DNA from: an uncultured Gammaproteobacteria bacterium
Lineage (GTDB): Bacteria > Patescibacteriota > Patescibacteriia > UBA9934 > GWF2-40-263
Direction: 5' to 3'
Length of the DNA stretch: 64,000 nucleotides
Assembly: GCA_964538435.1 (NCBI GenBank)
Contig: CAZIDX010000006.1
Location: 11,923-75,922, forward strand
Of this stretch, positions 3,490-52,711 are shown in pieces (position 1 is the stretch's first letter; each line of letters opens with the position of its first letter). The notes below the pieces were generated by a model, which did no database searches, was not told the DNA's origin, and saw only the letters and a list, made by a program, of their open reading frames with translations. A program made the translations under genes and the position numbers.

Positions 3490-3548
3490 AATTTCTGGCC
3501 TGATTTCTCTTCAGGCAATCCATATTTGGACTATGGACAGATTAGTTT

Positions 3549-3562
3549 ATTAGCGCGCTAAT
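3549..3562. promoter_or_regulatory. Perfect 14-bp palindrome ATTAGCGCGCTAAT in the divergent promoter region between rpsF and the methyltransferase gene; candidate operator
   Basis: Perfect dyad symmetry read directly from the sequence, inside a 122-bp divergent intergenic region. Confidence 0.3.
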
Positions 3563-3611
3563 CCTAGCGATGTTTGGTAAAAAAGTCAAGATTGGGGCAC
3601 AATAGGTCTAT

Positions 3612-25006: not shown

Positions 25007-25009
25007 ATC

Positions 25010-29421: not shown

Positions 29422-29422
29422 A

Positions 29423-30328: not shown

Positions 30329-30351
30329 ATCTTTCTATCCTTTACAAACAT

Positions 30352-30380
30352 AGTATATCATGAATACGAAAAGTAGTCAA
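30352..30380 (-). promoter_or_regulatory. Sigma70-like promoter of the surface-protein operon (TTGACT-17-TATACT)
   Basis: Near-consensus hexamers with 17-bp spacing, about 25 nt upstream of the start codon. Confidence 0.55.
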
Positions 30381-30434
30381 CCTAGGATTATGCTAAGTTT
30401 AGCAAAGAAATTATGGTTTGGAAGGATAAAATGA

Positions 30435-30467
30435 GCCCATTTCTGGCCTTGAGGGCCAAAAATGGGC
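30435..30467. promoter_or_regulatory. Extended nested hairpin GCCCATTT-TGGCC-TTGA-GGCCA-AAATGGGC upstream of the operon promoter (insulating terminator or regulatory RNA element)
   Basis: Near-perfect dyad with T-runs on both strands. Confidence 0.4.
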
Positions 30468-30595
30468 ACTTTTTTAGATTTATCCACATATTTAGCATGT
30501 TTGTCTACACTATACTGGACAAATAGATCAAAAATCGGTGTTTTGTTTCCTGTGAAACCAATTACAGCTTCTATTCCTGATAGTTTGTGTTAAAC

Positions 30596-30625
30596 AAAAA
30601 GACACGGTTATTTCCGTGTCTTTTT
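30596..30625 (-). terminator. Terminator of the HAD hydrolase gene
   Basis: agacacgg-ttatttc-ccgtgtct followed by TTTTT on the minus strand. Confidence 0.6.
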
Positions 30626-30654
30626 ATCTTCTAAGAAGGGCACTTCCTTCTTTT

Positions 30655-31329
30655 TTATCTTACACCAACGATTATCTGTTCAATCTTCTTCACACATGCT
30701 TCTAAGCTCTCAAATACATCGTTTGCAATTGAAAAGTCTAACCCTGCTGAGTATTTTCCTGGGATAGCACAAACATGTGTACCTGCACCACAAGCAGATT
30801 CTACGCCACTATAGGAATCCTCAATTGAAATACAATGTTTTGGTTCAGTCCCCGCTTTCTTTGCTCCCAGGACAAATGGCTCTGGATCTGGTTTCCCGTT
30901 TTCAACAGAATCAGCAGTTACCCATCCATCAAATGGATTTTGAAGCTGCAAGATATCAAAGTTCCTCAGCACTGATCTTTCTAGAGATGATGTAACGAGG
31001 ATGAATTTGATGTTATTTGCTTTTACTAGTTCAACCAATCTTTCAAACCCAGGCATGAGATGCATTCTTTTCTTCACAAGCTCATGCTCAAGCTCAGATA
31101 ATCTTTTCCTGAAAACATCTTGCTCGACATTCATACCCAGCGTATCTATCAAATAACGCGACCAGTGGTCACCTGTGGTTCCTAGAATATCTCGATGATG
31201 CACTTCTGTGAACTCGCCACCGAACTCAGAGCACACTTGCCTGAAACAGCTGTGTGAAATTTCTTCTGTGTTAATAATTGTGCCATCCATGTCACAGAGG
31301 ACAGCTTTAAGTTCATGTTCCATAGACAT
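30655..31329 (-). CDS. HAD-superfamily hydrolase (beta-phosphoglucomutase/phosphatase-like)
   Basis: Motif I LCDMDGTII and other HAD motifs. 224 aa. Confidence 0.8.
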   Translation of the reverse strand: MSMEHELKAVLCDMDGTIINTEEISHSCFRQVCSEFGGEFTEVHHRDILGTTGDHWSRYLIDTLGMNVEQDVFRKRLSELEHELVKKRMHLMPGFERLVELVKANNIKFILVTSSLERSVLRNFDILQLQNPFDGWVTADSVENGKPDPEPFVLGAKKAGTEPKHCISIEDSYSGVESACGAGTHVCAIPGKYSAGLDFSIANDVFESLEACVKKIEQIIVGVR

Positions 31330-31351
31330 GTTTCACAAGGAACAGATTTAG

Positions 31352-31427
31352 TGGTGTCCCCGGGAGGACTCGAACCCCCATGTCATCCTTAGGAGGGATG
31401 CGCTCTATCCTGTTGAGCTACAGGGAC
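31352..31427 (-). tRNA. tRNA-Arg (anticodon CCT), CCA encoded
   Basis: The reverse complement folds as a cloverleaf. Anticodon loop CUCCUAA. T-arm GGGGG-TTCGAGT-CCTCC. Confidence 0.85.
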
Positions 31428-31518
31428 ATTATGTGTCGTAAAACGTTAAACTTCTTTTCGTGATATACTGTAGTTCGACGTAATTGTACGTCTCAATCCA
31501 CTAAGCGTCAAAGCACCT

Positions 31519-32634
31519 ATGCTAACTGAAATCTTGCTTGCAGTCGTCATTGCTCTTCTTGTTGCTGTCTTGTTGTTTCTTTTAAAAAAGCGACCTGTTT
31601 CCTCAGAGCAAGCCGACACTCAGCTCTTTACTCTTATCAATGATCTGAGGAAGGAGATTCAAAGCACTACAAACTCTTCGCGAAAAGAAGTTGAGACAAA
31701 GCTCGATCAGATGCATGAGCGTATGGTTTCTAACTTAAACACGTCCTCAGCAACGCTGCAAAAGCATTTTAAGCACACTCTGTCTTCCTTTGCAGGTGTA
31801 AAGGAGCAACTCACACAGCTTGATGAGACAAATAAGCAGGTACTTGGGTTCTCAGAGCAGCTTCAGAGCCTTGAAAACATTCTTAAAAACCCAAAACAGA
31901 GAGGTATTCTTGGTGAGTATTGGCTAGAGTCGCTTTTGGGGCAGGTTCTGGCGCCAGGACAGTACAAAATGCAGCATCATCTCGGTACTGATGAGAAGAC
32001 TGGGCAGAAACTTATTCCAGATGCTGTTCTATTTATCAAGGATCTTGTTGTTCCAATTGACGCTAAGTTTTCCCTTGAAAATTACAATAGAATCTCCCAG
32101 GAGCCTGATGCTACGAGGCGAAGCAAGCTTGAAAAGGAATTTAAGGCTGATGTGAAGCTTCGTATTGACGAAACAGCTAAGTATATTCAACCAGAAAAGG
32201 GGACTACGAACTTCTCATTCATGTTTGTTCCAGCAGAAGGGGTGTACCACAACCTTATTACTTCAGATGTTGGTGCTGTAAAGGTGAATACACGCAACTT
32301 GATTGAGTACGCTTTTGAAAAAGGAGTGATGATTGTGTCGCCAACCAGCTTCTTTGCCTACCTTCAGACCGTCATTCTTGGCCTTAAAGCGCTTCAAATA
32401 GAAGACTCGGTCAAGGAGATCCAAAAGCAGGCAGAGGCCCTTATGAGGCACATGAAGGCTTATGAGGATCACCATAATCGTGTTGGAAAACATCTTGATA
32501 CTACTGTTAGGGCCTATTCAGCCTCAAATAAGGAGCTTGGGAAGATTGATAAGGACATCTTTCGCATCACAGGAGGGGATGCAGGAAAGGAACTTGAGCT
32601 TCTTGAGGTCGATCTGCCTAGCAAGGACGAATAG
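31519..32634 (+). CDS. rmuC: DNA recombination protein RmuC
   Basis: N-terminal TM and coiled coil, then NPKQRGILGEYWLESLLGQVL and the RmuC nuclease-like C-domain. Confidence 0.85.
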   Translation: MLTEILLAVVIALLVAVLLFLLKKRPVSSEQADTQLFTLINDLRKEIQSTTNSSRKEVETKLDQMHERMVSNLNTSSATLQKHFKHTLSSFAGVKEQLTQLDETNKQVLGFSEQLQSLENILKNPKQRGILGEYWLESLLGQVLAPGQYKMQHHLGTDEKTGQKLIPDAVLFIKDLVVPIDAKFSLENYNRISQEPDATRRSKLEKEFKADVKLRIDETAKYIQPEKGTTNFSFMFVPAEGVYHNLITSDVGAVKVNTRNLIEYAFEKGVMIVSPTSFFAYLQTVILGLKALQIEDSVKEIQKQAEALMRHMKAYEDHHNRVGKHLDTTVRAYSASNKELGKIDKDIFRITGGDAGKELELLEVDLPSKDE

Positions 32635-32711
32635 TTGACAACTTGGCCAATTCGGCTATACTACCCGCGTCTCAGTTAGCTACTGCTAACATCACACGCT
32701 CAAGCAAAACT

Positions 32712-32981
32712 ATGCCAAATTTAGCAAATGCAAAAAAAGCTCTACGTCAGAGTGATAAGCGAGCTCAGCGAAACAAAATTGTGAAAGCTGAGATCAAGTC
32801 TCTTCGCGTAAAGCTTAGAAAGATGATTGATGCTGCAAATACCAAGGAAGCTCAAGCGATTGCTCAGGTGATCTGCAAGAAGCTTGATAAGGCTCAGCAG
32901 AAGAACATCTACAAAAAGAACACTGTAGCGCGATACAAATCTCGACTCATGAAGAAAGTAAACGCGCTTACAACCAAGTAA
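32712..32981 (+). CDS. rpsT: 30S ribosomal protein S20
   Basis: MPNLANAKKALRQSDKRAQRNK... is typical of S20. Start refined to ATG at 32712. Confidence 0.8.
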   Translation: MPNLANAKKALRQSDKRAQRNKIVKAEIKSLRVKLRKMIDAANTKEAQAIAQVICKKLDKAQQKNIYKKNTVARYKSRLMKKVNALTTK

Positions 32982-33022
32982 ACAAAAAAGCAGTCTCTCA
33001 CGAGCTGCTTTTTGGTTTGCAT

Positions 33023-33634
33023 TTAGTCTGAGAGCTCTGTGATATAACCATCTTCAATGTAGAGAGCTTGAGCATCGGTTAGAACAAAGGTTTTGAGATC
33101 TGTTTTTGCCATTCCTTTGTCTGTTGCTTCTTTGTGTTGCTGCTCAAAGTGCACTGACACAAGAAAAGGCACAAGCCCCATGCCTTCCAAGCCCTGATTT
33201 TCTTCTGGGAAGTATTTTGTTGTTTCTTTCCAGAGACACATCTCGAGTGACGGACATGCTACATAGGCACCTGCACTTGTCCCGGAGTAGAGCACACCTT
33301 TTTCCATCAGCTCCTCGAGTACTTCTTGGAATCCAGATTCTTTGATTGCTCGCATGAGATAGAACGTATTGCCTCCATGCATGTAGATTACGTCTTTTTC
33401 AGCAAGGAGCTCTCTGAGCTCGTCCTGGTTCTTGCCCTCAATATCGATCTCTTCATACTCAAATGGCATTTTATTCATGCGCTCATAGTGCTTTTGCATG
33501 TAATCCGTACCAGTTGCGCCGTTTTTTGCTGTTGTCACCCAAGCGATCTTTGCTTGGTCAAGAGGCTTTTCGACATATTCATCAACATGTTCGTACCAAT
33601 AGTCTGAGGCAGATGTGAGAAGAAGTTTTTTCAT
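33023..33634 (-). CDS. Peptidase S51 family (dipeptidase E-like)
   Basis: GGNTFYL and GTSAG nucleophile motifs. 203 aa. Confidence 0.7.
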   Translation of the reverse strand: MKKLLLTSASDYWYEHVDEYVEKPLDQAKIAWVTTAKNGATGTDYMQKHYERMNKMPFEYEEIDIEGKNQDELRELLAEKDVIYMHGGNTFYLMRAIKESGFQEVLEELMEKGVLYSGTSAGAYVACPSLEMCLWKETTKYFPEENQGLEGMGLVPFLVSVHFEQQHKEATDKGMAKTDLKTFVLTDAQALYIEDGYITELSD

Positions 33635-33635
33635 A

Positions 33636-34088
33636 TTATTCTCCTAAAGCCTTGAGGGCTTTGGTTCCGTAATAGGTTACGTTCTCGAGAAGATCGTCTG
33701 AGCCTAACTCTTCTTTTGTAAACCACTTAATATCGTTATGTTCTTGCTCGGCTAGCACGATCTTGTCTGTCTTGCTGGTTGCAAAGTAGACCATGCCGAT
33801 GTGTCTGTGCTCGTCCGTGATCTTGTGGATGTCGAGATAGACCGGTGGGATGAGTGATTTTATGTGGTCAGAGTCAATATTCTCACGCGCGCCCATGATT
33901 TGGACATCAAGACCGCTCTCTTCTTTAATCTCGCGCATGAGAGCTTGCTCTGGATCCTCGTCGAGTTCAATGTGACCACCCACTGGGAGCCAGGTGTCGA
34001 GTTTTTTGTGGTGCACAAGCAGGACTTTATCTGCGTGAACAATGAACGCGGCGATTGTGAAATCAATCAAATCGTGAAGGTGGGCCAT
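33636..34088 (-). CDS. NUDIX hydrolase
   Basis: Nudix box GGHIELDEDPEQALMREIKEESGL. Confidence 0.8.
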   Translation of the reverse strand: MAHLHDLIDFTIAAFIVHADKVLLVHHKKLDTWLPVGGHIELDEDPEQALMREIKEESGLDVQIMGARENIDSDHIKSLIPPVYLDIHKITDEHRHIGMVYFATSKTDKIVLAEQEHNDIKWFTKEELGSDDLLENVTYYGTKALKALGE

Positions 34089-34091
34089 AGT

Positions 34092-35069
34092 CTATTTTGT
34101 TAAAAGTTTTGTTGTTGTGAGATCAACTGCGAGCTTGGCGTCGATTTGACCAGTTTTCAGTTTTTGATCGAACTCGAATAATAAGTCGTGCGCGCTGCGC
34201 AGGGTGTCCATGTTGAATCCGCGTGCTTGTTGCAAGGCTTTTTGCGCAACAAAGGGATGCACACTCAGTGCGCTTGCGAGTTCTTGCTTGGTCACAGCTG
34301 GATTCTCATCGAGAAGGGCGCGTGCACCAAGCAGGATTCGCACCTGACGACCAAGCATAGTGAGTAGGTAGTGATCGTTTGCACCTGACCATCGCTCTTC
34401 TTCGAGTAGTTTGAGGGCTTGTTTTGGTTGTCTGCGCGAAATCGCGTCGATGAGATCAAAGATCTTTCCTTCAAATGATGCATGTACGAGCCTGTCCACC
34501 ATTTCTAAATCGATTTGCTTACCTGATGCAAAAGAAACGAGTTTGCTGATCTCATGATCCATTTGCCAAAGGTCTGGGCCAACGCGCTCGATCAGCCCCT
34601 GCATTGCCTGCCTGCCAATTGTGCCACCACGTTCTTTTACGCGCGTTGCAATCCACTTTCCAAGCTTGGTACCATCGAGCTCTGGAAATGGGTAGTGATG
34701 GACATCTGCTTCGTCTTTTAATGCCTTGAAGATGGCTTTTTTCTCAAGCGTCTTTGGGCTGGTTGTTTCCCAGAAGATCACGATACTCGACTGAGGCGAT
34801 GACTTTAGCCCATCCACCCAAATGTCCATGTCAGCTTTTTTTGTATTTGTGACAAGATCACGAATAATAACCATGCGCCTATCTCCCATGAATGGAAGTG
34901 ACTTGATAGCTTGCAGCACCTCACCTGGCTCAAGCTTTGTTTTGTTTTGAGCAGGAAACTCGGCAGTGTTAAGGCCGGTTGGATCAAACTTTTCCTTAAA
35001 CGCCTTTTTCATTGCCTGAACCTTTTCTTGCACTTGAAATGTGTCGTCTCCGTAGATAAAGATGAGCAT
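34092..35069 (-). CDS. holA: DNA polymerase III delta subunit
   Basis: N-terminus MLIFIYGDDTF..., 325 aa, helical C-domain. Length and motifs fit HolA. Confidence 0.7.
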   Translation of the reverse strand: MLIFIYGDDTFQVQEKVQAMKKAFKEKFDPTGLNTAEFPAQNKTKLEPGEVLQAIKSLPFMGDRRMVIIRDLVTNTKKADMDIWVDGLKSSPQSSIVIFWETTSPKTLEKKAIFKALKDEADVHHYPFPELDGTKLGKWIATRVKERGGTIGRQAMQGLIERVGPDLWQMDHEISKLVSFASGKQIDLEMVDRLVHASFEGKIFDLIDAISRRQPKQALKLLEEERWSGANDHYLLTMLGRQVRILLGARALLDENPAVTKQELASALSVHPFVAQKALQQARGFNMDTLRSAHDLLFEFDQKLKTGQIDAKLAVDLTTTKLLTK

Positions 35070-40442: not shown

Positions 40443-41207
40443 CTAGTCTATGTGTGTGCTTGCGCAGTTCCACACAAGATCAAAGAGTGTGCGGTATGTG
40501 CGAGCGACATCACCTGAGGCAACAATGATCATAGTGTTCTCGCGACGGGTTGTAATAAAAGCAACTTGATCTGCAAAGATAATGACAGATGAAGGCAGAT
40601 CTAGGCCAGCTGGAATAAATCGGGACTCGCGAAGCTCAGCCTCGTCACGCTCAACGATTTTTCGTGTTTCGCGATTCTCTGGAATGAGTTGCTTGCTTTT
40701 AATGCCGCGTCGCTTGCGCTCTGCAATCACGCGCTCTACAAGATAAGGCTCCTTCACGTAATCGAGCAGGCCAACTCCTGAGGTGATGAGCCTGTACTCT
40801 GTGACTCCTGATGCGTAGATGTGGCGCCAGAGCTTTTTGAATCCGTCTGTGCCTTCAAAGAAAGATACACCTGGTCCACCCTGAGCTGTTTCTTGCAAAA
40901 CCTCGAGTGATGGAAGGCTTTTCTCGAGCAGGCTCTGCCGATCTAGTAGATGTTGGCGAAGGAGCTCTGGTGATTCTGCTGTGTAGACGATTCGTTTTTT
41001 TTCTTTTCCGCGCTTGTATGCACCCAGGCGTCTGAGTTTTTCAAGCATTGGATACAGTGTGGTGCGGGGGATTTGTGTGCGGCGCGAGAGCTCGAGCACG
41101 GTTGCTGTGCCAAGCTCAAGACCAGCCAAGTAGATCTTGGCTTCTTTTTTGTCGAGACCGAATGCCTCGAGGCCTTCGAGTACTTCGGGTGAGTAGTGCA
41201 TACGCAT
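40443..41207 (-). CDS. TrmB-family transcriptional regulator (second copy)
   Basis: wHTH LELGTATVLELSRRTQIPRTTLYPMLEKLRRLG and a TrmB C-domain. Confidence 0.7.
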   Translation of the reverse strand: MRMHYSPEVLEGLEAFGLDKKEAKIYLAGLELGTATVLELSRRTQIPRTTLYPMLEKLRRLGAYKRGKEKKRIVYTAESPELLRQHLLDRQSLLEKSLPSLEVLQETAQGGPGVSFFEGTDGFKKLWRHIYASGVTEYRLITSGVGLLDYVKEPYLVERVIAERKRRGIKSKQLIPENRETRKIVERDEAELRESRFIPAGLDLPSSVIIFADQVAFITTRRENTMIIVASGDVARTYRTLFDLVWNCASTHID

Positions 41208-43655: not shown

Positions 43656-43886
43656 GCTACGCAAGCTGCCCTCTAGGGTGGCTTTTTCAATTCAATTATG
43701 CTCACCCTCTCCACACCACGTCATCCTGAAGGAGTTTGAATTGACTGAAGGATCCCACACACAGCAAGACAAACCTGCAATGAGCAGCGTCGAGGTCATT
43801 GTTGGAGGGGATCCTTCGCTGCGCTCAGGATGACAGGGTGGGGTGAAGGCAATTCAAAAACCCCTGCTATCGCAGAGGTTTCTGAA

Positions 43887-43898
43887 TGGGGCGACCAA
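43887..43898. repeat. 12-bp direct repeat (TGGGGCGACCAA) identical to the 3' end of tRNA-His, 134 bp from the gene: att-like scar
   Basis: Exact copy of the tRNA 3'-terminal 12 nt. The intervening 122 bp contain several hairpins and an inverted 13-nt copy of the tRNA-His T-arm (GTTCGATTCCCGTT). Confidence 0.55.
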
Positions 43899-44020
43899 TC
43901 CCGACGATCCGGCGAAGCCGGATGTCGGGACCCCGACACCAAAAGTCGTCGGGGCGGGTGTAATTCATGTTCGATTCCCGTTTCCACTAAAAAACCCTCG
44001 CTTGCGCGAAGATTTTTTAG

Positions 44021-44096
44021 TGGGGCGACCAACGGGAATCGAACCCGTAATACCAGTACCACAAACTGGTGTGATAACCGTTTCACCATGGTCGCC
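44021..44096 (-). tRNA. tRNA-His (anticodon GTG) with encoded G-1 and CCA
   Basis: The reverse complement folds with G-1:C73, acceptor GCGACCA/UGGUCGC, D-stem GUGA/UCAC, anticodon loop UUGUGGU and T-arm ACGGG-UUCGAUU-CCCGU. ORFs 43796..44098 and 43843..44229 overlapping it are spurious. Confidence 0.85.
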
Positions 44097-44181
44097 ATGG
44101 ACGGAGGGAGGATATCAAATATTCAAAAAGAGATCAAGAGTAACAGAAACACCCCGACCTGTGCGGTCGAGGTGCCGTGTG

Positions 44182-44508
44182 TCATCTCACTCTTTTTATC
44201 CAGAACTTGATCGGGCTCTTGTAGTCTAGCCACTCGAGAGCAAGTCCTGAGACTTGTCTTTTCACCCTCCCCTGAGTTGTGTTCACCCAGATATATGGAG
44301 CGCCCTCACACCCATAATCTTTTGTCCGGCCACAACGAAAGATTGCTTCGTAGTACTTCATCCCAAAAGATTGGAATTTACCCAGATGATCAAGTAGATA
44401 TTCGAAGTCTTCCGTACCCGCCCAGTCTTCGTCATTCACCCCACCTACCTCAGGTGAGGTTGAACAAATGAGCTCGTAAACCCTATCGCCTGCGCGAATT
44501 TCCATCAT
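44182..44508 (-). CDS. Hypothetical small protein (108 aa), last gene of the low-GC operon
   Basis: Stop-start overlap with the upstream methyltransferase gene. About 40% GC. Confidence 0.45.
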   Translation of the reverse strand: MMEIRAGDRVYELICSTSPEVGGVNDEDWAGTEDFEYLLDHLGKFQSFGMKYYEAIFRCGRTKDYGCEGAPYIWVNTTQGRVKRQVSGLALEWLDYKSPIKFWIKRVR

Positions 44509-45503
44509 CCTTTCCCTTTCACACCACTGAATACGAACGTGCGTTCGATGTGTTCTGTGATGAACGTGTTTTGTGTATTCTCAAACCAACTTGCCAATGT
44601 CTTACCATCGATCACTGGACACTCGACAGGAGGCGCATCGCCATGCAGCATGAAGTGTGGTTTATACCATTTCATATACTCCTCATGTGTCGGTACATAG
44701 AAATCTGCCACCCCAATAAACCCACCGGGTTTGGCAGCCTCTTCCATTTGCTGACACAGAAGTTTTCTTCCATGAAGATTCATATGGTGGTGTGTGTAAG
44801 CCGAGAGCACAACATCAAAATTACCTATCACTTCGTCTGGTAGCTTCTCCCCATCACCAAGGTAGTAAGTCGTCTTTTCATCTGCAAGCATTTTTTTGTA
44901 CACCCCCCCGTCCTTACCAGCAAAAGAGAGCTGATACTCTTCAATCATTTCGTTTGGGACAATGAATTGACCAGCCTTTGTTACCTCAAGAACATTTGGA
45001 ACGATATCAAGCATTGCGATCTGGACCTTATCGAGAAGTCCTGCTCGATCAAATGCACGTAGCGCAAACAGGGTTGTGATTGCGCCACCGCAAGGTCCGA
45101 TATCGATAAGACTAATCTCGTCTTGCTGTTTAAGTGTTTCGATATTCTCCCACAGATAAGACTCGAGCCGATTCGACAACTCATTATTTCCTTCAGAAAC
45201 CCATCTGTCTTCAAAAAACTTCTCAGAGACATATTTCTCATTCACACCAGATGGAAACCGACGCACAGCCCCTTGCTCGAGCACACTTACGTCCATGAGT
45301 GGATGGAGGTAAAAGAGTTCTTCATCAAGATTAACAGGTGTCTCGTAAGTGAATTCACTTTGTTCGTCTCGGTGCGGATTTTTACCCTCGGGAAAGAATC
45401 TTGGATCAATGAGGTGCAGATATTCTTTTTGTTTATCAGAAAAATTTTCAGGCTTCACCAGAAGCGTGTCAAAATCAACAAGTTGTTCTAGATGTTTGCT
45501 CAT
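44505..45503 (-). CDS. Class I SAM-dependent methyltransferase
   Basis: Motif I IDIGPCGGAIT and post-I acidic LDIVP. 332 aa. Confidence 0.7.
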   Translation of the reverse strand: MSKHLEQLVDFDTLLVKPENFSDKQKEYLHLIDPRFFPEGKNPHRDEQSEFTYETPVNLDEELFYLHPLMDVSVLEQGAVRRFPSGVNEKYVSEKFFEDRWVSEGNNELSNRLESYLWENIETLKQQDEISLIDIGPCGGAITTLFALRAFDRAGLLDKVQIAMLDIVPNVLEVTKAGQFIVPNEMIEEYQLSFAGKDGGVYKKMLADEKTTYYLGDGEKLPDEVIGNFDVVLSAYTHHHMNLHGRKLLCQQMEEAAKPGGFIGVADFYVPTHEEYMKWYKPHFMLHGDAPPVECPVIDGKTLASWFENTQNTFITEHIERTFVFSGVKGKG

Positions 45504-46434
45504 ATTCTTTGATAGTTATTCCAGTAGCCTTTTCAAAATTCTTGTCTGTGATATTGCCACCTGAGACAATGCAAGCGCGGATCTTTTTGTCCTTGCCATC
45601 AATCTTTGCTGCTGCGTATGCGATTGCTCCGGCGCCCTCGACCGCCTCTCCAGTCTTTTCGTAGATCTCTCGCATTGCGTCTTTGATCTGATCCTCGGTT
45701 GGCGTAATGAAACGATCAACGTTTTCTGAGATGATCTGGTAAGTCACAGTGGACGGACTAAGGTTCACAGCAAGTTTTTCTGCTTGCGACTTGTTTGGCC
45801 TTACCTCTGTGACACCACCCTTCTCTACCGCCGTCACCATGGCGTGCATATTCTCAGGCTGCACTCCCACGATCTCGATCTCTGGCTTCATCGCTTTAAG
45901 TGCAACAGAGATTCCTGAGATGAGCCCGCCGCCACCAACAGGAACATAGACGATATCTAGGTTTTTGATTTGGTCGAACAGCTCGAGACCAATTGTTCCT
46001 TGGCCAGCGATCACATCCTCGTCGTTGTACGGGTGAACAAATGGAATACTGTTCTCACGAGCGTGCTGCACAGCCATCTGCTCAGTAGAGCCAAACACAT
46101 CTGTTCCGTAGAGCACCTCATCAACCAAGCCCTCCATCTTTTCTTCTGCATCTGCTGGTGGGTTTTGAATCATCACGCAAATCGTGTGTATGCCAAGTTT
46201 CTTTCCAATGTGACCCAAAGCAAACCCATGCGTTCCGAGCGCTGACGTCATGACTTTCTTTGATGGATTATTGGTCATTGCGCTTGCTGCCCCACGAATC
46301 TTAAAACCTTTCACAACAGGCTGGTGGTTCTCGAGTTTTAGAAAAAGACCAGGATCAATCTCTTTGACTGGTGTGAGCTCAACAAGGTCTTTGATTCTTT
46401 TTTCCGAATCTTTTATGTCTTGAAGTGTAACCAT
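45475..46434 (-). CDS. PLP-dependent fold-type II enzyme, threonine/serine dehydratase-like (EutB-like)
   Basis: PLP-Lys motif KLENHQPVVKGFKIRGA and glycine-rich PVGGGGLISG. Confidence 0.75.
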   Translation of the reverse strand: MVTLQDIKDSEKRIKDLVELTPVKEIDPGLFLKLENHQPVVKGFKIRGAASAMTNNPSKKVMTSALGTHGFALGHIGKKLGIHTICVMIQNPPADAEEKMEGLVDEVLYGTDVFGSTEQMAVQHARENSIPFVHPYNDEDVIAGQGTIGLELFDQIKNLDIVYVPVGGGGLISGISVALKAMKPEIEIVGVQPENMHAMVTAVEKGGVTEVRPNKSQAEKLAVNLSPSTVTYQIISENVDRFITPTEDQIKDAMREIYEKTGEAVEGAGAIAYAAAKIDGKDKKIRACIVSGGNITDKNFEKATGITIKEYEQTSRTTC

Positions 46435-46436
46435 AA

Positions 46437-47348
46437 CTAGTTTGAAATAATTGTCTCAGCGAGCGCAGCGTCTGTGGCTGGTGGTCCGTGGTGCTTGAAA
46501 ACGATCACACCCTCAGCACCCACAAGAGATGGATCAGAGATCGTTTGACCAAGCTCAACAATGCTTCCAAGGTCATACCCTTCACCTTTGGCTAGCTTGA
46601 TCTCATCATACATTGGAATGTTTTGCTCAGAATCCACGATCACTTGAGCGTTTCCGACCGTGCCCTCTGGAACCTCTTGGTCTTTTTTCATGGCGCCCAC
46701 ACCAATAATCAAAGCGTGCTCTGACACATCTTTGGCATCAAACACAGGATTGCTTGATGTGGTTGCTGTGACAATTATATCTGCACCGAGCACGGCTTCT
46801 TTTGCGCTTTTTGCAGCTGTGATCTTTATCTCACCAGCAAGCTCGCTTACTGACGCTTCGAGATGCTCTCTTGTTGGGCTATGCATCCGCACCTCTTTTA
46901 TCTCTGGAAAAAGTTTTGTAAGTATCCGAGCATGAGCCTTTCCTTGAACACCACTTCCAAAGATTGCCAAGATGTTCTTTTTCCGAGCGAGGTGCTTCAC
47001 ACCAACAGCAGAAGAGAGGGAAGTGCGAATCGCTGCAAAGTGCCGCGCTTCAATGATTGAGTTTAAGATTCCTGTCTTGCTATCAAACACCAAGATGTAC
47101 GGGTGAACAGTTGGTAGACCTTTTTCACGATTGCGCCTGTAGTCAGTAGCTTGCTTTGAGATAAAGATCGGGCTTTCTTGCAAGTACGCTGGGAACGAAT
47201 AAAACATCCCGTCATTTACTGACATCGAAGTTGTCTCAGGGATTTGCGTGCGCCCAGAAGAGTAGTCTTGATAGCTTTTTTCGATTGCTGCAAAAGCCTT
47301 TTCAAGATCAATGGACTCTTTCACTTGTTTTTCTGAAATGATGTTCAT
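46437..47348 (-). CDS. Ornithine cyclodeaminase / mu-crystallin family protein
   Basis: 303 aa. Rossmann motif LAIFGSGVQGKAHA. Typical OCD N-terminal region. Confidence 0.75.
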   Translation of the reverse strand: MNIISEKQVKESIDLEKAFAAIEKSYQDYSSGRTQIPETTSMSVNDGMFYSFPAYLQESPIFISKQATDYRRNREKGLPTVHPYILVFDSKTGILNSIIEARHFAAIRTSLSSAVGVKHLARKKNILAIFGSGVQGKAHARILTKLFPEIKEVRMHSPTREHLEASVSELAGEIKITAAKSAKEAVLGADIIVTATTSSNPVFDAKDVSEHALIIGVGAMKKDQEVPEGTVGNAQVIVDSEQNIPMYDEIKLAKGEGYDLGSIVELGQTISDPSLVGAEGVIVFKHHGPPATDAALAETIISN

Positions 47349-48481
47349 ACGGTTTGCATTTTGTTTTTGCTTACGATTTCTGCAATCGCATCGTATGCCT
47401 CATCGAGTTCTTCCTGCGTGGTGCTTTTTGAGATCGAGAGGCGGATGTTACCATGAAGGTATTCCATTGGGCACTTGATGGCTTTCATGACATGTGAGAC
47501 GTCTTTTGCACTTGATGAGCATGCTGATCCAGTTGAGACGTAGATACCACGCTTTGAAAGCTCAGACTGAAGCTGCTCACCTTCCATCATTGAGAAAGAG
47601 AGGTTGATGTTGTTGCAAAGCCTTTGATCGCCTTGAGCTCCGTTTACACGCACCCCATTAAGCTTTTCGAGTTTTTCAAGAAAGGCATTGCGTAGCTCAC
47701 TCATCTTTTTCACATCGTCCTGGGAAGCAATCTCAACCGCTTTTGCAAATCCGGTGATTCCGGCGATGTTCTCAGTTGAGCTTCGCAGGTTAAATTCTTG
47801 ACCACCACCATGTAGAAGAGCTTGGATGCTTGTTCCTTTCCTAATAAAGAGTCCCCCCACACCTTTTGGACCGTGGATCTTGTGAGCATTGATTGTCATG
47901 AGGTCTACTGGAATCTGGCTCACATCAATTGGAACTTTGGTGTAGCTTTGGCAGGCGTCTGTGTGAAAAAGAACTTTCTTCTCTTTGCAGATGTTTGCGA
48001 TTGCAGCGAGATCTTGAATCGTTCCGATCTCGTTGTTTGCGTGAATAACAGATACCACGATTGTTTTGTCTGTGATTGCATCTTCTACATCTTTTGTATT
48101 CACAAATCCTTGCTCGTCCACTGGAAGATATGTGACCTTGGCACCACGCGTCTCAAGCCAGCGACATGCATTGAGCACGCAGTCGTGTTCAATCTGGGTT
48201 GTGATGATGTGATTTTTCTCAGGGGCCATTTGAAAGAAGAGGCCTTTGAGTGTGAGGTTGTTTGCCTCTGTCCCGCTTCCGGTAAACACAATTTCTGACG
48301 GGTCTGCTTTGATTGAATCTGCAATTGCTTTGCGTGCAGTGCTCAGAGCTTCTTTAGCTTCGAGGCCTTTTGCGTGTACTGAAGATGCGTTCGCAAAAAA
48401 CTCAGACCAAAACAGCTGCATTGCTTTTTCTACAGCTGGGTCAACAGCTGTAGTGGCTGCGTTGTCAAGATAGATGTTCAT
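47345..48481 (-). CDS. Class V aminotransferase, cysteine desulfurase (NifS/IscS)-like
   Basis: MNIYLDNAATTAVDP... start, plus HKIHGPKGVGGLFIRKG (PLP-Lys region) and a C-terminal SxGSAC-like region (STGSACSSS). Confidence 0.8.
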   Translation of the reverse strand: MNIYLDNAATTAVDPAVEKAMQLFWSEFFANASSVHAKGLEAKEALSTARKAIADSIKADPSEIVFTGSGTEANNLTLKGLFFQMAPEKNHIITTQIEHDCVLNACRWLETRGAKVTYLPVDEQGFVNTKDVEDAITDKTIVVSVIHANNEIGTIQDLAAIANICKEKKVLFHTDACQSYTKVPIDVSQIPVDLMTINAHKIHGPKGVGGLFIRKGTSIQALLHGGGQEFNLRSSTENIAGITGFAKAVEIASQDDVKKMSELRNAFLEKLEKLNGVRVNGAQGDQRLCNNINLSFSMMEGEQLQSELSKRGIYVSTGSACSSSAKDVSHVMKAIKCPMEYLHGNIRLSISKSTTQEELDEAYDAIAEIVSKNKMQTV

Positions 48482-49215
48482 ACTTTTCCTAGGTCAAAAC
48501 TTGTTACGACTTTGTCCTCGAGAAGGTAGACGTTCATGATGTCGGTACCTGAGTAAAAATGTTCTGCGACTACACGCCCTTTCTCGATGGCAAAGTAGTT
48601 TGGAATGTTGTCCTCGTTTGCGAGGTCAACGTAATAGAAGTTTAAACTTGAATCGAACCCACGCCTCTTCATCTGCTGTGCGTACGCGGCCATGATGAGT
48701 GGACATGCTGCGATTCCGTATTTGTCGTTTGGATTTGGGCGGGAGAGCGTAATCTTTCTTCCGTCTTCTGGGTTTACGAACCAGTAGGCACCTTCTGAGA
48801 GTTCGATGTGTTCATATTCTTCTTTGATCTTTTTGAGCATTTCCTTTTTTCCCTTGTTACGCAGACTCTTTTCCCAAAAGACAACCACGTCCTGCTCATC
48901 AATGTTATGGTTGGTAAGAATCTCTTTGTACTCATCTGGAAGTGAAAAGATCTCTTTTGCTTTTTCAGGGTCAATGGTGCACACCTGCTTTTTTGCATCA
49001 CAGACCCCACCCATGTTGTTTACCAAAATTCCAAGTCCAACTTGTTTGTCGTTTCCTCGAGCTTGTACATAGGCCTCGACTGCGTTTTCGAATGATTCAA
49101 TGGTTCCTGTGTTGAGGTTTGGAGATCCGTCTTCGAGGATCATGAAGTGCCCACCTGTAATGATGGTGTGGTCTTTGATTTTACTTGAGAATAGGGAAGT
49201 GTCTGCTTTGGTCAT
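48478..49215 (-). CDS. Hypothetical protein (245 aa), first gene of the low-GC operon
   Basis: No recognised domain. Overlaps the next gene by 4 nt. Confidence 0.5.
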   Translation of the reverse strand: MTKADTSLFSSKIKDHTIITGGHFMILEDGSPNLNTGTIESFENAVEAYVQARGNDKQVGLGILVNNMGGVCDAKKQVCTIDPEKAKEIFSLPDEYKEILTNHNIDEQDVVVFWEKSLRNKGKKEMLKKIKEEYEHIELSEGAYWFVNPEDGRKITLSRPNPNDKYGIAACPLIMAAYAQQMKRRGFDSSLNFYYVDLANEDNIPNYFAIEKGRVVAEHFYSGTDIMNVYLLEDKVVTSFDLGKV

Positions 49216-49345
49216 ATATTGATTGTATCGAAGTGAGTATACACTATTTTGGGGGTTTTGTCAATGCTAATTGCAAGTTCTTACTTGACTCTTCTTGACA
49301 AACGTCAATATTTATGATATTGTTAATGCAGATTGTTAATTTTGT

Positions 49346-50344
49346 ATGTCTGAATCTGCTACAGTGCTCATTGATGAGCTCGACAAAAAAATCCTGGGGC
49401 TCCTGGATCAGGACGGGCGTATGCCCGCAGTTAAAATTGCAGAGCGTATTGGTGTTTCTCGTCAGGTTGTGAGTCAGCGAATACAAAAACTTGAAGAGCG
49501 AGGAGTGATCCTTGGTCATTATACGATTTTTGATAGTGGGGTGGTTGGGTATAACTGGTATCGTGTGCTGATCCGACTTCTGAATGCCTCCAAGTCACAA
49601 AAACAAGAGTTTCTGGATTATCTCACAACCCATGAACATGTGACTTGGCTTGGTGAGGTTGGTGGTAGATGGGATATTGCAGTGAACTTTGCTTGTGCGA
49701 GCCCTTCGGAGTTCAACACTGTCTACGAAGAGATTTCTGTGAAGTTTGGACCGATTGTGAAGGATGTTGAAGTGCTTGTGTATGTTGATATCTACGATTA
49801 CTCACGAACATATTTTGACCCTGAAGACAGCACTCGAAAACGATTCTTTCATCAAATGTCATCGGGTGGACAAGTGGAAATCGATGCGTTTGATAAAAAA
49901 CTTATTAAGGTGATTGCACAGAATGCACGACTCGATAACACCGCGCTTGGAGCTGAGCTTGGGGTCACACGCAACACGGTGAAGAATCGAATTGATCGGC
50001 TGATTGAGAAAAAAGTCATTCTTGGATTTCGTACCTTTGTTGATTTGAAGAAACTGGGGTACGAGTCGAATATGCTCTTTTTGCAGATCAACCGCATGGA
50101 TCGTGAGCGTGAGACAGAACTCTATTTATACCTACAACTCCTGACACAAGTCTCGTTCGTGGTAAAGCATATTGGAAAGTGGAAGGTGGGGCTTGAGATC
50201 GAGACCAAGGACTCACACGAGTTTCAAGAACTGCTTCTCAATCTTCGTTCAGAGTTCAGTGATCTGATTAGCGACTATGACACCTTCCCACTTCTGAAAG
50301 ACTATGCGATCAACTACTTCCCAGATGGAGTGCTTGTGAAATAG
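49346..50344 (+). CDS. Tandem Lrp/AsnC-family transcriptional regulator (two HTH + RAM modules)
   Basis: Two repeats of an HTH_AsnC plus ligand-binding domain (LDKKILGLLDQDGRMPAVKIAERIGVS...; FDKKLIKVIAQNARLDNTALGAELGVTRNTV...). Divergent from the operon. Confidence 0.75.
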   Translation: MSESATVLIDELDKKILGLLDQDGRMPAVKIAERIGVSRQVVSQRIQKLEERGVILGHYTIFDSGVVGYNWYRVLIRLLNASKSQKQEFLDYLTTHEHVTWLGEVGGRWDIAVNFACASPSEFNTVYEEISVKFGPIVKDVEVLVYVDIYDYSRTYFDPEDSTRKRFFHQMSSGGQVEIDAFDKKLIKVIAQNARLDNTALGAELGVTRNTVKNRIDRLIEKKVILGFRTFVDLKKLGYESNMLFLQINRMDRERETELYLYLQLLTQVSFVVKHIGKWKVGLEIETKDSHEFQELLLNLRSEFSDLISDYDTFPLLKDYAINYFPDGVLVK

Positions 50345-50371
50345 AAACACCCCGCCGGAGTACGGTCGGGG

Positions 50372-50838: not shown

Positions 50839-50924
50839 TTGTCAATCCCGACGCTTCGGTCGGGATGAATAGAAAAAGCCCGATTCCAGAGGAATGGGCC
50901 TGTTGGCGGAGCCGAGCTTGGCTA
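50839..50924. repeat. Terminator-promoter module about 85% identical to 8350..8425
   Basis: GAAAAAGCCC-hairpin-...GAGCTTGGCTA, plus CCGACCGAAGCGTCGGG abutting TTGACA. Confidence 0.55.
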
Positions 50925-51563: not shown

Positions 51564-51667
51564 GATTCACCTTGGGCTGCCAGGAAGTCTTAGCAGACGA
51601 TGCAGAGTAGCGTAAAAACAGACATTTGTCAACACAAAAACCCCTCAGGCTTGCTGAGAGGTTTTTA

Positions 51668-51743
51668 TGGTAGCCCGAGCAGGACTCGAACCTGCAACCT
51701 TGAGTTTAGAACACTCCTGCTCTTCCAGTTGAGCTATCGGGCC
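51668..51743 (-). tRNA. tRNA-Arg (anticodon TCT), CCA encoded
   Basis: Cloverleaf with D-stem GCUC/GAGC, anticodon loop GUUCUAA and T-arm GCAGG-UUCGAGU-CCUGC. There is a G27:A43 mismatch. Confidence 0.8.
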
Positions 51744-51784: not shown

Positions 51785-52711
51785 TCAATCGTCTTTGCGT
51801 TTTTTGCCGTGGTACTTTTTGTGCACTTCTTTCATTTTGTTATTTGTAATGTGGGTGTAGATTTGGGTGGTTGTGATGGATGCGTGACCAAGCAAGGATT
51901 GTACTGAGCGGATGTCTGCGCCATTTAAGAGAAGATCTGTAGCAAAGGTGTGGCGCAGAGTGTGTGGTGTTATATGTTTTGTGATGCCGGATGCTTTTGA
52001 GTAGCGCTCGACTAGGCGCTGGATTGATCGTGGAGTGAGTGGGCCTGCGTTGTCTCGACCACCTTTGGCGCGGTCGTGTGAGACAAACAGATACTCTGAT
52101 AGGTCCCGGCGCTTGCCTAAGTATTCTGTTAGAGAATCGCGCGCTGTTGAAGAGAGAAATACAATGCGAGGCTTGTCGCCTTTTCCTCTAATAGTGAATT
52201 CTTCTCGTTTGAGATTGATTTGCTCGATCTTGAGGCTTGAAATCTCAGACACGCGCATACCGGTTGAGAAGAGGAGTTCGAGTACTGCTGTGTCACGAAG
52301 AGCCACCAAGCCGCTACTGATTCGCTTTGGGGCCTTGAGTAAGCGATCTAGTTCTTCGATTTCGAGAAACTCGACTGTACGAATTTCTTGTTTTGCGAGT
52401 TCGATCTTTTCTGGGGCCAGTGAGACGATATCTTGCTTTGAGAGGTACTTTAAAAATGATCGCAAGGCAATGAGGTGGTAGTTCTGTGTGCTCTTTTTTA
52501 GCTGCTCTCCATCTCGACCAACAACTGAGCGGTTAAGCCAGAGCCTGTACTTTCGCACCATCTCTCCGGTTATTTTTGCTGGCTCTGGGTTTTTTGCGTA
52601 CTCCTGAAATCTTCGCAAATAAAAATCGTAGTTTCGGATTGTTCGCGAAGAGCGACCGCGCTCGACTTCGAGGTATTCTAGAAACTGTGTAATGAGTTTT
52701 GAGATGGTCAT
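51785..52711 (-). CDS. Tyrosine recombinase XerC/XerD family
   Basis: C-terminal catalytic block HTLRHTFATDLLLNGADIRSVQSLLGHASITTTQIYTH and an N-terminal core-binding domain. Lies 42 bp from the 5' end of tRNA-Arg. Confidence 0.85.
   Translation of the reverse strand: MTISKLITQFLEYLEVERGRSSRTIRNYDFYLRRFQEYAKNPEPAKITGEMVRKYRLWLNRSVVGRDGEQLKKSTQNYHLIALRSFLKYLSKQDIVSLAPEKIELAKQEIRTVEFLEIEELDRLLKAPKRISSGLVALRDTAVLELLFSTGMRVSEISSLKIEQINLKREEFTIRGKGDKPRIVFLSSTARDSLTEYLGKRRDLSEYLFVSHDRAKGGRDNAGPLTPRSIQRLVERYSKASGITKHITPHTLRHTFATDLLLNGADIRSVQSLLGHASITTTQIYTHITNNKMKEVHKKYHGKKRKDD

Follow-up and report, generated by a model that had tools for sequence, protein, structure and literature searches.

Here, we analyze a gene cluster in a stretch of 64,000 nucleotides of contig CAZIDX010000006.1 (referred to as the window) that is best described as an amino acid-regulated operon built on a NifS-like cysteine desulfurase and a new partner enzyme, g1. 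In the open reading frame (ORF) map of the window, six co-directional genes lie on the minus strand: g1, the NifS-like gene, a gene similar to those for ornithine cyclodeaminases (OCD), a gene for a threonine dehydratase-like, pyridoxal phosphate (PLP)-dependent enzyme (PALP), a gene for an S-adenosylmethionine (SAM)-dependent methyltransferase (MT), and g6. On the opposite strand lies AsnC2, which encodes a tandem Lrp/AsnC-type regulator (Table 1). Adjacent genes of the operon overlap by 4 nt at the g1/NifS, NifS/OCD and MT/g6 junctions and by 29 nt at the PALP/MT junction. An earlier interpretation that used only the letters of this DNA and its ORFs (the sequence-only reading) had described overlapping stops and starts throughout; this is correct for four of the five junctions, while OCD and PALP are separated by a 2-nt spacer. 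Otherwise, its gene content, borders and family labels were reproduced by the ORF map, Pfam and NCBIfam, and its view of the cluster as a single regulated operon of amino acid-type enzymes and unknowns was borne out.

Table 1. Features of the operon, its control region and the adjacent tRNA gene; positions are those of the window.
Feature	Positions	Strand	Product and family match
g1	48478-49215	minus	245 aa; no family
NifS-like	47345-48481	minus	378 aa; Aminotran_5 (PF00266) 1.7e-78
OCD-like	46437-47348	minus	303 aa; OCD_Mu_crystall (PF02423) 4.6e-45
PALP (Thr-dehydratase-like, fold-type II PLP)	45475-46434	minus	319 aa; PF00291 2e-55
MT (class I SAM methyltransferase)	44505-45503	minus	332 aa; Methyltransf_11 7e-5
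g6	44182-44508	minus	108 aa; no family; last operon gene
AsnC2 (tandem Lrp/AsnC-type regulator)	49346-50344	plus	332 aa; divergent from operon
Divergent control region	49216-49345		130 bp between g1 and AsnC2
tRNA-His(GTG)	44021-44095	minus	ARAGORN, Rfam; neighbor of the operon

The core of this operon is the pair g1-NifS. We gathered ∼50 independent g1 loci by context look-ups and a metagenome scan and analyzed their neighbors by tBLASTn and clustering; 46 of these loci were evaluable for the gene that follows g1. In 26 of the 46, this gene is NifS, and 24 of these 26 gene pairs are spaced by −4 to +27 nt. Moreover, the pairwise identities of g1 and NifS correlate with r=0.95 (190 pairs). Because of the next-gene position, the tight spacing and this correlation, we conclude that g1 and NifS are inherited as a unit.

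Around this core, the related loci are modular. In the loci with the closest g1 proteins (type A; 58 to 65% g1 identity), AsnC2 is divergent from g1-NifS-OCD-PALP, such that OCD-PALP follows NifS in seven other loci (L002, L005, L016, L017, L019, L021 and L022). At 40 to 48% g1 identity (layer B), a bare two-gene g1-NifS cassette is present. A gene for a GshB-like ATP-grasp protein immediately precedes this cassette in L010 and L026, a gene for a PLP enzyme of the Cys/Met gamma family (Cys_Met_Meta_PP) lies ahead of it in L037 and L041, transporter genes lie downstream of it in L007, and at times it is found amid housekeeping genes, e.g., after DnaK-DnaJ (L029) and before ThrRS (L040). At 34 to 41% g1 identity (layer C), g1 has no adjacent NifS; it follows an aldehyde:ferredoxin oxidoreductase (AFOR) gene in seven loci and genes for a class I/II aminotransferase and a DUF2769 protein in eight, and MttB-like methyltransferases, 2-oxoacid dehydrogenase E1/E2 and an HGD-type dehydratase are also encoded nearby. 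Other g1 neighbors are LDH and transporters of the BrnQ, EamA, SSF and SNF types, and in L027 a fold-type II PALP gene directly follows g1. MT occurs together with g1 in L068 (TrmB divergent from g1-MT-SNF transporter), L064 (TrmB divergent from g1-NifS-MT) and L014 (AsnC2 divergent from g1-NifS-AsnC2′-MT). OCD-PALP is an accessory module; MT, which is found with g1 repeatedly, forms a module of its own.

A sister contig, L015, has ∼80% nucleotide identity to the window and is fully syntenic with it, including TrmB and PolA. In L015, AsnC2 is divergent from g1-NifS-g6, and the part corresponding to window ∼44505-47301 (OCD-PALP-MT) is missing; a decayed stub of ∼48 nt from the 5′ end of OCD is fused to the ribosome-binding site and start codon of g6. 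Because this stub remains, we conclude that OCD-PALP-MT was deleted in the L015 lineage. The ratio of nonsynonymous to synonymous substitution rates (dN/dS) between the two contigs is 0.04 to 0.10 for AsnC2, g1, NifS and g6, indicating purifying selection. Since L015 lost OCD-PALP-MT and kept these four genes, the six genes do not form an indivisible pathway, and the conserved unit is AsnC2 divergent from g1-NifS. Thus, the six-gene set that the sequence-only reading had treated as one conserved entity gives way to a g1-NifS core with separable OCD-PALP and MT, all three of which are lost in L015.

g1 had previously been listed as an unknown first gene. There is indeed no match to Pfam, NCBIfam or PADLOC, but the label underrated the protein: g1 represents a new protein family without a curated entry and is the most informative part of the locus. 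We found 23 homologues among 5.8 billion clustered proteins, and a profile search gave 189 matches among 1.84 billion cluster representatives, all of them stand-alone proteins of 200 to 320 aa; no Pfam domains were detected in ten distant relatives. In sequence and profile comparisons with the PDB, one alignment (A1) had no matches, and the sole match of another (A4), to designer PPR proteins, was a repeat artifact. An AlphaFold2 (AF2) model based on 20 homologues has a mean predicted local distance difference test score (pLDDT) of 89.9 and a predicted template modeling score (pTM) of 0.88, and its topology is b1-aA-b2-(insert)-b3-aB-(beta-hairpin insert)-aC-b4-aD-b5. In a Foldseek search of the PDB with this model, the top matches were exclusively catalytic domains of class I aminoacyl-tRNA synthetases (aaRS), i.e., ArgRS (3fnr, 5e-7) and CysRS (3sp1, 9e-6), followed by MetRS and LysRS-I, with E-values ranging to 1e-3 and a probability of 1.0. 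As modeled, g1 would therefore have the fold of the class I aaRS superfamily, in which an insertion splits the halves of a Rossmann fold. The HIGH and KMSKS motifs are not recognizable in g1, which has only TGGH after strand b1, and there is no anticodon-binding domain in this single-domain protein, which ends ∼14 residues past strand b5. Because these motifs and this domain are lacking, we regard g1, as it is modeled, as an aaRS-like scaffold and not as an aaRS.

We counted residue conservation over 140 g1 family sequences (alignment A4). G22, P93, E115, N120 and C171 are each present in at least 90% of them and H23 in ∼80%, while C72 and C79 strictly co-occur in 85 of the 140, including the window protein. 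In the subfamily of this protein, H23, C72, C79, E115, N120 and C171 are invariant, and a basic motif, WEKxLRNxGKK, is also conserved. In the model, the conserved residues appear to line the active-site face, at the C-terminal edges of b1, b2 and b3 and at a helix N-terminus. Cys171 starts the helix after the inserted beta-hairpin, presumably like the zinc-ligand Cys209 of Escherichia coli CysRS. Altogether, these residues point to an enzyme that uses a cysteine as nucleophile and, where the Cys pair is present, may employ it for relay, resolution or metal binding.

The sulfur link proposed by the sequence-only reading is supported by a bona fide cysteine desulfurase-type enzyme. The NifS-like protein belongs to PF00266, and its translation contains both the PLP-binding Lys (HK, in NAHKIHGPKG) and the loop with the persulfide-forming Cys (STGSACSS). 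Its best PDB matches are cysteine desulfurases (1e-89), and by fold, PLP Lys and Cys loop it is predicted to be a group I (NifS/IscS-type) desulfurase. It scores under the curated cutoffs for the individual types, namely NifS (TIGR03402, 442.7 versus 530.75), IscS (374 to 377 versus 548 to 643) and DndA (TIGR03235, 356 versus 480).

The regulator AsnC2 has the duplicated Lrp/AsnC architecture of helix-turn-helix (HTH) and regulation of amino acid metabolism (RAM) domains, consistent with the tandem, divergent regulator described earlier. HTH_AsnC-type (PF13404, 7.6e-26) is matched in two stretches and AsnC_trans_reg (PF01037) in the first half, with 26.1 bits versus a cutoff of 25; the second RAM domain is not picked up by Pfam alone, and the two halves of the protein are ∼25% identical. 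AsnC2 is divergent from g1 in all type A loci as well as in L014, L015 and L030, and its dN/dS versus the sister contig is 0.04. Similarity to the siroheme decarboxylases AhbA/NirDL is weak (39 bits versus a cutoff of 140), and an enzymatic role of AsnC2 is not favored. In the control region, a promoter scan, which reports consensus matches only, predicted an operon promoter on the minus strand (TTGACA-17-TATACT, 49264-49236) and an AsnC2 promoter on the plus strand (TTGACA-17-TATTGT, 49295-49323). The palindrome TTGACAAACGTCAA (49295-49308) overlaps the −35 element of AsnC2 and is kept in L015, and related TTAC-N4-6-GTAA palindromes occur two to three times in the equivalent spacer of L005, L016, L018, L021 and L014. 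These palindromes would fit an autoregulating DNA-binding protein of the Lrp/AsnC type. L014 encodes a second tandem AsnC paralogue (3065-4033), 24% identical to AsnC2 over its full length; this gene lies within the operon, between NifS and MT on the same strand, which is unusual for a regulator. In L030 (5846-7290), the spacer between AsnC2 and g1 is enlarged to ∼718 bp. From the sequence, the insert reads as an ORF for an IS200/IS605-type TnpA between GC-rich inverted repeats, and g1 is in two fragments; the cassette in this locus seems to be degenerating.

Turning to the accessory enzymes, OCD keeps the GSGVQG motif, and its best PDB matches are Pyr2C reductase (6t3e), the ketimine reductase CRYM (4bv8), which is the mammalian thiomorpholine-carboxylate dehydrogenase, an archaeal alanine dehydrogenase (1omo) and an iminosuccinate reductase (6rqa). 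OCD is thus predicted to be an NAD(P) enzyme closest to the imine reductase/alanine dehydrogenase branch. PALP keeps FKIRGA, GGGGL and SGGN; its closest PDB matches are TdcB (2gn0, 1.6e-42) and serine racemases, and it reaches 207 bits versus a cutoff of 453 for the TdcB type. At residues ∼64-70, PALP has SALGTH in place of the canonical S-x-G-N-H asparagine loop, as does its homologue in L002; this suggests that the substrate or reaction specificity of PALP may be unlike that of TdcB or serine racemase. As judged from the translations, the active-site motifs of OCD, PALP and NifS are intact; a lack of catalytic residues in the PLP and OCD enzymes had been named by the sequence-only reading as counting against it.

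MT belongs to a rare family, of which we found 36 homologues, and its AF2 model has a pLDDT of 94.3. The top Foldseek matches of this model are CysG/BelI, NovO/CouO, Coq5 and CmoA. CysG and BelI are Ca2+-dependent carboxyl O-methyltransferases with a His-His-Asp metal site (PMC11408123). An invariant HHH (238-240) in MT aligns with the HH metal motif of CysG, although with a marginal E-value of 0.009. Based on the model, MT is probably a small-molecule methyltransferase and is possibly metal dependent. Its family is usually found with a divergent TrmB-type regulator (L012 and L066), and in this TrmB module MT is encoded alone, with g1, with g1-NifS or with an unrelated protein of 258 aa, at times together with an SNF or SSF transporter (L066, 4994-7005; L068, 2505-6737; L012, 8252-11134; L064, 4961-9113). 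The 258-aa protein upstream of MT in L012 looked g1-like by eye and was rejected as a g1 relative by hhalign (probability 0.3%) and by the lack of a hidden Markov model match. A TrmB gene also lies 3.3 kb from MT in the window (40443-41207) and is present in L015 as well. For g6, searches of Pfam, NCBIfam and PADLOC gave no family match, and conservation is confined to L015 (64% aa identity), where g6 directly follows NifS; because its dN/dS versus the sister locus is 0.095, g6 is a real gene.

How could these proteins work together? We tentatively favor the idea that g1 serves the coupled NifS as sulfur acceptor or sulfurtransferase and that the operon mobilizes cysteine sulfur and steers C3/C4 skeletons to pyruvate-level products. 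The system would then be an accessory operon, with a two-protein core, on the chromosome of an Uhrbacteria-like member of the Patescibacteria. In this core, the NifS/IscS-type desulfurase would take the sulfur of L-cysteine, giving alanine and an enzyme persulfide, and g1 would receive the persulfide on Cys171, helped by His23, Glu115 and Asn120; in the subfamily of the window protein, the pair Cys72/Cys79 could resolve or relay the sulfur. AsnC2 would bind the palindromes in the 130-bp spacer and probably activate the operon when it senses an amino acid, for which cysteine, alanine and serine are candidates. PALP and OCD might process the C3/C4 skeletons, either from Ser/Thr/Cys to a 2-imino or 2-oxo acid or between alanine/imine and pyruvate, and MT (possibly metal dependent) and g6 might tailor or detoxify the product, e.g., by methylation of a thiol or carboxylate. 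The net outcome would most likely be a regulated breakdown of cysteine, together with serine or alanine, to pyruvate-level carbon, ammonia and mobilized sulfur.

Several observations argue for g1 as the acceptor. First, g1 and NifS are tightly linked and co-inherited, as expected of a desulfurase-acceptor pair, and this core was kept after the deletion in L015. Second, g1 has a near-universal Cys. Third, the PLP enzymes that neighbor g1 in other loci are of classes with known roles in cysteine processing; these are an aminotransferase, which could feed a 3-mercaptopyruvate-type route, a fold-type II eliminase and an enzyme of the gamma-lyase type. The retained PLP Lys and persulfide-forming Cys loop of NifS and the palindromes that overlap the AsnC2 promoter are also in line with the favored reading. 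The catabolic direction is suggested by the other contexts of g1, which involve transport and the catabolism of amino acids or 2-oxo acids, and by the precedent of CyuR-cyuPA. CyuR is a member of the Lrp/AsnC family. In E. coli, CyuR-cyuPA provides for a regulated fermentation of cysteine to pyruvate, NH4+ and H2S (PMC9040844).

Other observations weigh against sulfur transfer from NifS to g1 as the purpose of the operon. In 20 of the 46 loci, NifS is not adjacent to g1, and in L068 g1 is joined to MT while NifS is missing; therefore, the chemistry of g1 cannot strictly depend on the desulfurase. C72/C79 are missing in 55 of the 140 family members. The structural matches of g1 have TM-scores of just ∼0.5 at 10 to 14% identity, and the aaRS-like fold of the model suggests a nucleotide-dependent ligase chemistry of which sulfur transfer makes no use. 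Moreover, OCD and PALP fall under all curated equivalog thresholds of NCBIfam, fitting a methyltransferase into a route of pure catabolism is ad hoc, and NifS may be a housekeeping enzyme if it is the only desulfurase of the organism.

The fold of g1 is the starting point of a biosynthetic alternative, which we consider unlikely. Here, g1 would be an ATP-dependent, MshC/CysRS-like ligase or adenylating enzyme that activates cysteine or the carboxylate of another amino acid, NifS would supply sulfur (as thiocarboxylate or persulfide) or process a cysteinyl adduct, PALP and OCD would make a building block, and MT would methylate, yielding a small, methylated metabolite that contains sulfur or a thiol of low molecular weight. 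In line with this idea, the best structural matches of g1 are class I aaRS, including CysRS, Cys171 is presumably placed like Cys209 of CysRS, L010 and L026 have a GshB-like ATP-grasp gene just ahead of g1-NifS, and MT, which recurs with g1 in L014, L064 and L068, resembles the small-molecule biosynthetic methyltransferases CysG/BelI, NovO and Coq5. However, g1 has neither recognizable HIGH/KMSKS motifs nor sequence-level similarity to any aaRS in the PDB and ends right after strand b5, most of its contexts look catabolic, OCD-PALP-MT is dispensable in the sister genome, and bacteria of the Candidate Phyla Radiation (CPR) are generally minimal in biosynthesis. The Cys residues of g1 also invite comparison with iron-sulfur (Fe-S) cluster biogenesis, in that C72, C79, C171 and H23, invariant in the subfamily, resemble the ligand set of IscU. 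g1 would then be an alternative scaffold or carrier that is fed by its own NifS in a minimal IscS-IscU-like system, and the self-contained g1-NifS cassettes next to DnaK-DnaJ and ThrRS are in keeping with such a role. Yet the family is very rare even in the well-sampled CPR/DPANN (189 clusters in 1.84 billion), 55 of 140 members are without two of the three Cys, 20 of 46 loci are without an adjacent NifS, and control by AsnC/TrmB and the association with MT, aminotransferase and AFOR would be unexpected; we find this alternative quite improbable.

We give still less credence to RNA modification, whereby g1 would be a truncated aaRS-like tRNA binder that thiolates tRNA with sulfur from NifS while MT methylates. 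Bacillus has desulfurase-thiolase gene pairs, YrvO-MnmA and NifZ-ThiI, as a precedent, and the aaRS-like fold, the conserved basic motif WEKxLRNxGKK and the adjoining tRNA-His gene could be taken the same way; against this stand the lack of an anticodon-binding or other RNA-binding domain and of a PP-loop in g1, Foldseek matches that are not thiolases, the rare and patchy distribution of g1, its usual neighbors (metabolite-type regulators, transporters, and PLP or catabolic enzymes), and the fact that the tRNA-His neighborhood is not kept at other loci. The sequence-only reading had drawn an analogy to the catabolic pair EutB/EutC, with SbnB as a further likeness of OCD. An ectoine/hydroxyectoine (EutB/EutC) or β-hydroxyaspartate (BhcB/BhcD) module with added genes would share the architecture of a threonine dehydratase-like PLP enzyme and an OCD protein, and sub-threshold matches exist to EutB, EutC, BhcB and BhcD. 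Every curated threshold is, however, missed widely. The equivalog scores are two- to six-fold under the cutoffs, for PALP as EutB (TIGR02991, 158.4 versus 413.35; NF005680, 178.3 versus 413), for OCD as EutC (TIGR02992, 94.3 versus 471.65), and for BhcB (NF045641, 152.9 versus 550) and BhcD (NF045643, 87.2 versus 500). The cutoffs for SbnA (TIGR03945, 37.3 versus 349.95) and SbnB (TIGR03944, 89.5 versus 326.9) are missed as well, and PALP belongs to the threonine dehydratase clade. Moreover, Pfam and inspection of the window neighbors revealed no ectoine hydrolase/deacetylase (Doe/Eut) genes and neither the aminotransferase BhcA nor the aldolase BhcC near the cluster, OCD-PALP is a dispensable part of the operon, and the SALGTH loop of PALP is non-canonical, making this alternative highly improbable. 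As for defense by DNA phosphorothioation (Dnd/Ssp-like), with NifS as DndA or SspA, NifS scores ∼450 bits on the PADLOC models for SspA and DndA, besides its 356 bits on TIGR03235; these models also cover generic IscS-type desulfurases, the TIGR03235 cutoff of 480 is missed, and PADLOC, which matches the desulfurase only, is silent on g1, g6, OCD and PALP. Because all other defining components are missing (there is no homologue of DndB-E or SspB-D), we rejected this idea, which retains hardly any plausibility.

The surroundings of the operon bear on whether it is an inserted element. The sequence-only reading had placed the cluster directly beside tRNA-His and regarded it as compositionally foreign, with a GC content of ∼40%. 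The adjacency is real, the tRNA gene lying 86 nt past the g6 stop codon; it gives no sign of insertion. Integrative elements target the 3′ end of tRNA genes, while it is the 5′ side of tRNA-His that faces the cluster. Among the window features and repeats examined, no integrase or attachment site (att)-like duplication flanks the cluster, and no insertion event is visible within the window. Thus, a position on the 3′ side, an internal integrase and att repeats shared with the tRNA 3′ end, which characterize tRNA-associated islands, are all lacking, and L015 carries the cluster at the same site. The only integrase gene nearby (51785-52711) encodes an XerC/XerD-like tyrosine recombinase of 308 aa (Phage_integrase and Phage_int_SAM_1); it lies beyond tRNA-Arg(TCT) (51668-51743), which it adjoins, 1.3 kb from the AsnC2 end of the cluster, and is kept in L015. 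A 15-nt direct repeat, AA(C/T)AGAAACACCCCG, brackets the whole cluster almost exactly (44142-44156 and 50340-50354), and weaker copies are present at 50868-50882 and 51631-51645. On the minus strand, the repeat forms the tail of terminator-like hairpins (..CGGGGTGTTTCT..). With its four copies and this hairpin tail, it was rejected as an att site and looks like a lineage-specific terminator motif instead. On the 3′ side of tRNA-His, away from the cluster, an imperfect 43-nt direct repeat (43856-43898 and 43990-44032) takes in the last ∼12 nt of the tRNA gene, and an inverted copy of the tRNA-His T-arm lies ∼50 nt away (43960-43982 versus 44031-44053). The tRNA-His block is inverted in L015 (12428-12634), and Rfam and ARAGORN detected no second tRNA or tmRNA at 43889-43988. 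These repeats are possibly the scar of a rearrangement or an old integration.

In composition, the cluster has a GC content of 45.2% rather than ∼40%, compared to 50.1% in the rest of the window. The genes of the window have a mean GC content of 51.2 ± 4.4%, and 3.8% of its 6.2-kb segments are as low as the cluster; hence, the 5-point offset is inside the window's own scatter, and the description of the cluster as compositionally foreign is overstated. In the related loci, the cluster is 1 to 9 GC points under its flanks in 10 of 10 tested. Because the offset has the same direction in all ten loci, and given the scatter within the window, it looks like a property of the cassette or its transfer history and not like a strong local anomaly. 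Together with the patchy distribution, the consistent GC offset suggests that the cassette moves between lineages. A second low-GC stretch at ∼28900-35000 (41 to 47% in 1-kb segments; lowest 6.2-kb segment, 44.6%) holds an RmuC gene, small ORFs and tRNA-Arg(CCT) at 31352-31427, and the region from 6.2 to 11 kb is unusually rich in GC (GC3, i.e., GC at third codon positions, 0.69 to 0.79). The flanks of the cluster consist of ordinary chromosomal genes, encoding PolA, Pol III delta, PNPase, YchF, a class II aaRS, DsbA-like proteins and giant surface proteins, and the closest named relatives of PolA are from Candidatus Uhrbacteria/Parcubacteria (63 to 66% identity), which places the host among the CPR/Patescibacteria. 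Cell-surface proteins typical of CPR bacteria are probably encoded by two giant ORFs that share one orientation (17468-28474); one is of 2512 aa, and the other, of 1154 aa, has fn3, purple-acid-phosphatase-N and CarboxypepD_reg domains.

The sequence-only reading found no described pathway for this gene set, and neither did we in NCBIfam, Pfam, PADLOC or the literature, which held nothing relevant on the gene combination, on aaRS-like desulfurase partners, or on desulfurases or Lrp proteins in Patescibacteria. g1, g6, the MT family and the gene combination lie outside any described pathway or curated family. Beyond the single operon, it is conceivable, if rather doubtful, that g1 represents a new enzyme family derived from class I aaRS that works with PLP enzymes of the desulfurase, aminotransferase, dehydratase or gamma-lyase type, either capturing the sulfane sulfur of cysteine or ligating/activating cysteine, and that, together with MT, defines a novel sulfur metabolite or persulfide route in CPR bacteria and other anaerobes. 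Cysteine desulfurases supply the sulfur for every sulfur-containing cofactor and for many thio-modifications, and the known routes are each defined by an acceptor protein. If confirmed, a new family of acceptors or partners of aaRS-like fold would add a branch to sulfur trafficking and assign a function to a protein family without a Pfam, NCBIfam or PDB entry. Very little amino acid metabolism is generally attributed to CPR (Patescibacteria) bacteria, and a regulated operon for processing Cys/Ser/Ala would be relevant to the question of which compounds these episymbionts obtain from their hosts. The modular variants provide natural controls, i.e., the g1-NifS core with or without OCD-PALP, MT, ATP-grasp or aminotransferase, and a natural deletion variant.

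Several known systems share features with this operon. In IscS-IscU, SufS-SufU/SufE, NifZ-ThiI of Bacillus and YrvO-MnmA, as in g1-NifS, the desulfurase gene is tightly linked to that of one partner with a conserved Cys. By contrast to these acceptors, g1 has no sequence relation to any of them and is predicted to have a class I aaRS-like fold rather than a U-type, SufE, rhodanese or PP-loop fold, and g1-NifS is placed under an amino acid-type regulator and joined to amino acid enzymes, with sulfur transfer being a proposal in its case. With CyuR-cyuPA, the operon in its proposed role as a breakdown route shares an amino acid-type regulator beside genes for cysteine breakdown, and transporter genes are often adjacent in the related g1 loci; however, CyuA is a [4Fe-4S] desulfidase and not a PLP desulfurase, there is no homology to any gene here, and the regulator, unlike CyuR, is a duplicated AsnC protein. 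As in BhcB/BhcD and EutB/EutC, a gene for a fold-type II PLP dehydratase-like enzyme adjoins an OCD gene, with the likely logic that a 2-imino acid is formed and then reduced or hydrolyzed; unlike in those modules, the order is OCD then PALP, downstream of g1-NifS, the companion genes are missing, and the pair is lost in L015. MT has the class I fold of CysG/BelI, and its invariant His-His aligns marginally (E 0.009) with the first two ligands of the His-His-Asp site (PMC11408123), while a ∼120-aa N-terminal extension sets it apart. Like MshC, GluQRS/YadB and the cyclodipeptide synthases, g1 would be a single class I aaRS-type Rossmann domain acting outside translation, and like MshC and CysRS it is linked, by its context, to cysteine chemistry. 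It differs from stand-alone aaRS paralogues in lacking HIGH/KMSKS and sequence similarity, in its size, which at 245 aa is much smaller than that of MshC, and in its conserved H, E, N and C residues, which suggest chemistry based on a Cys nucleophile. Altogether, a desulfurase with a dedicated partner in a regulated amino acid operon is a known kind of system, whereas the partner family and the gene combination are new.

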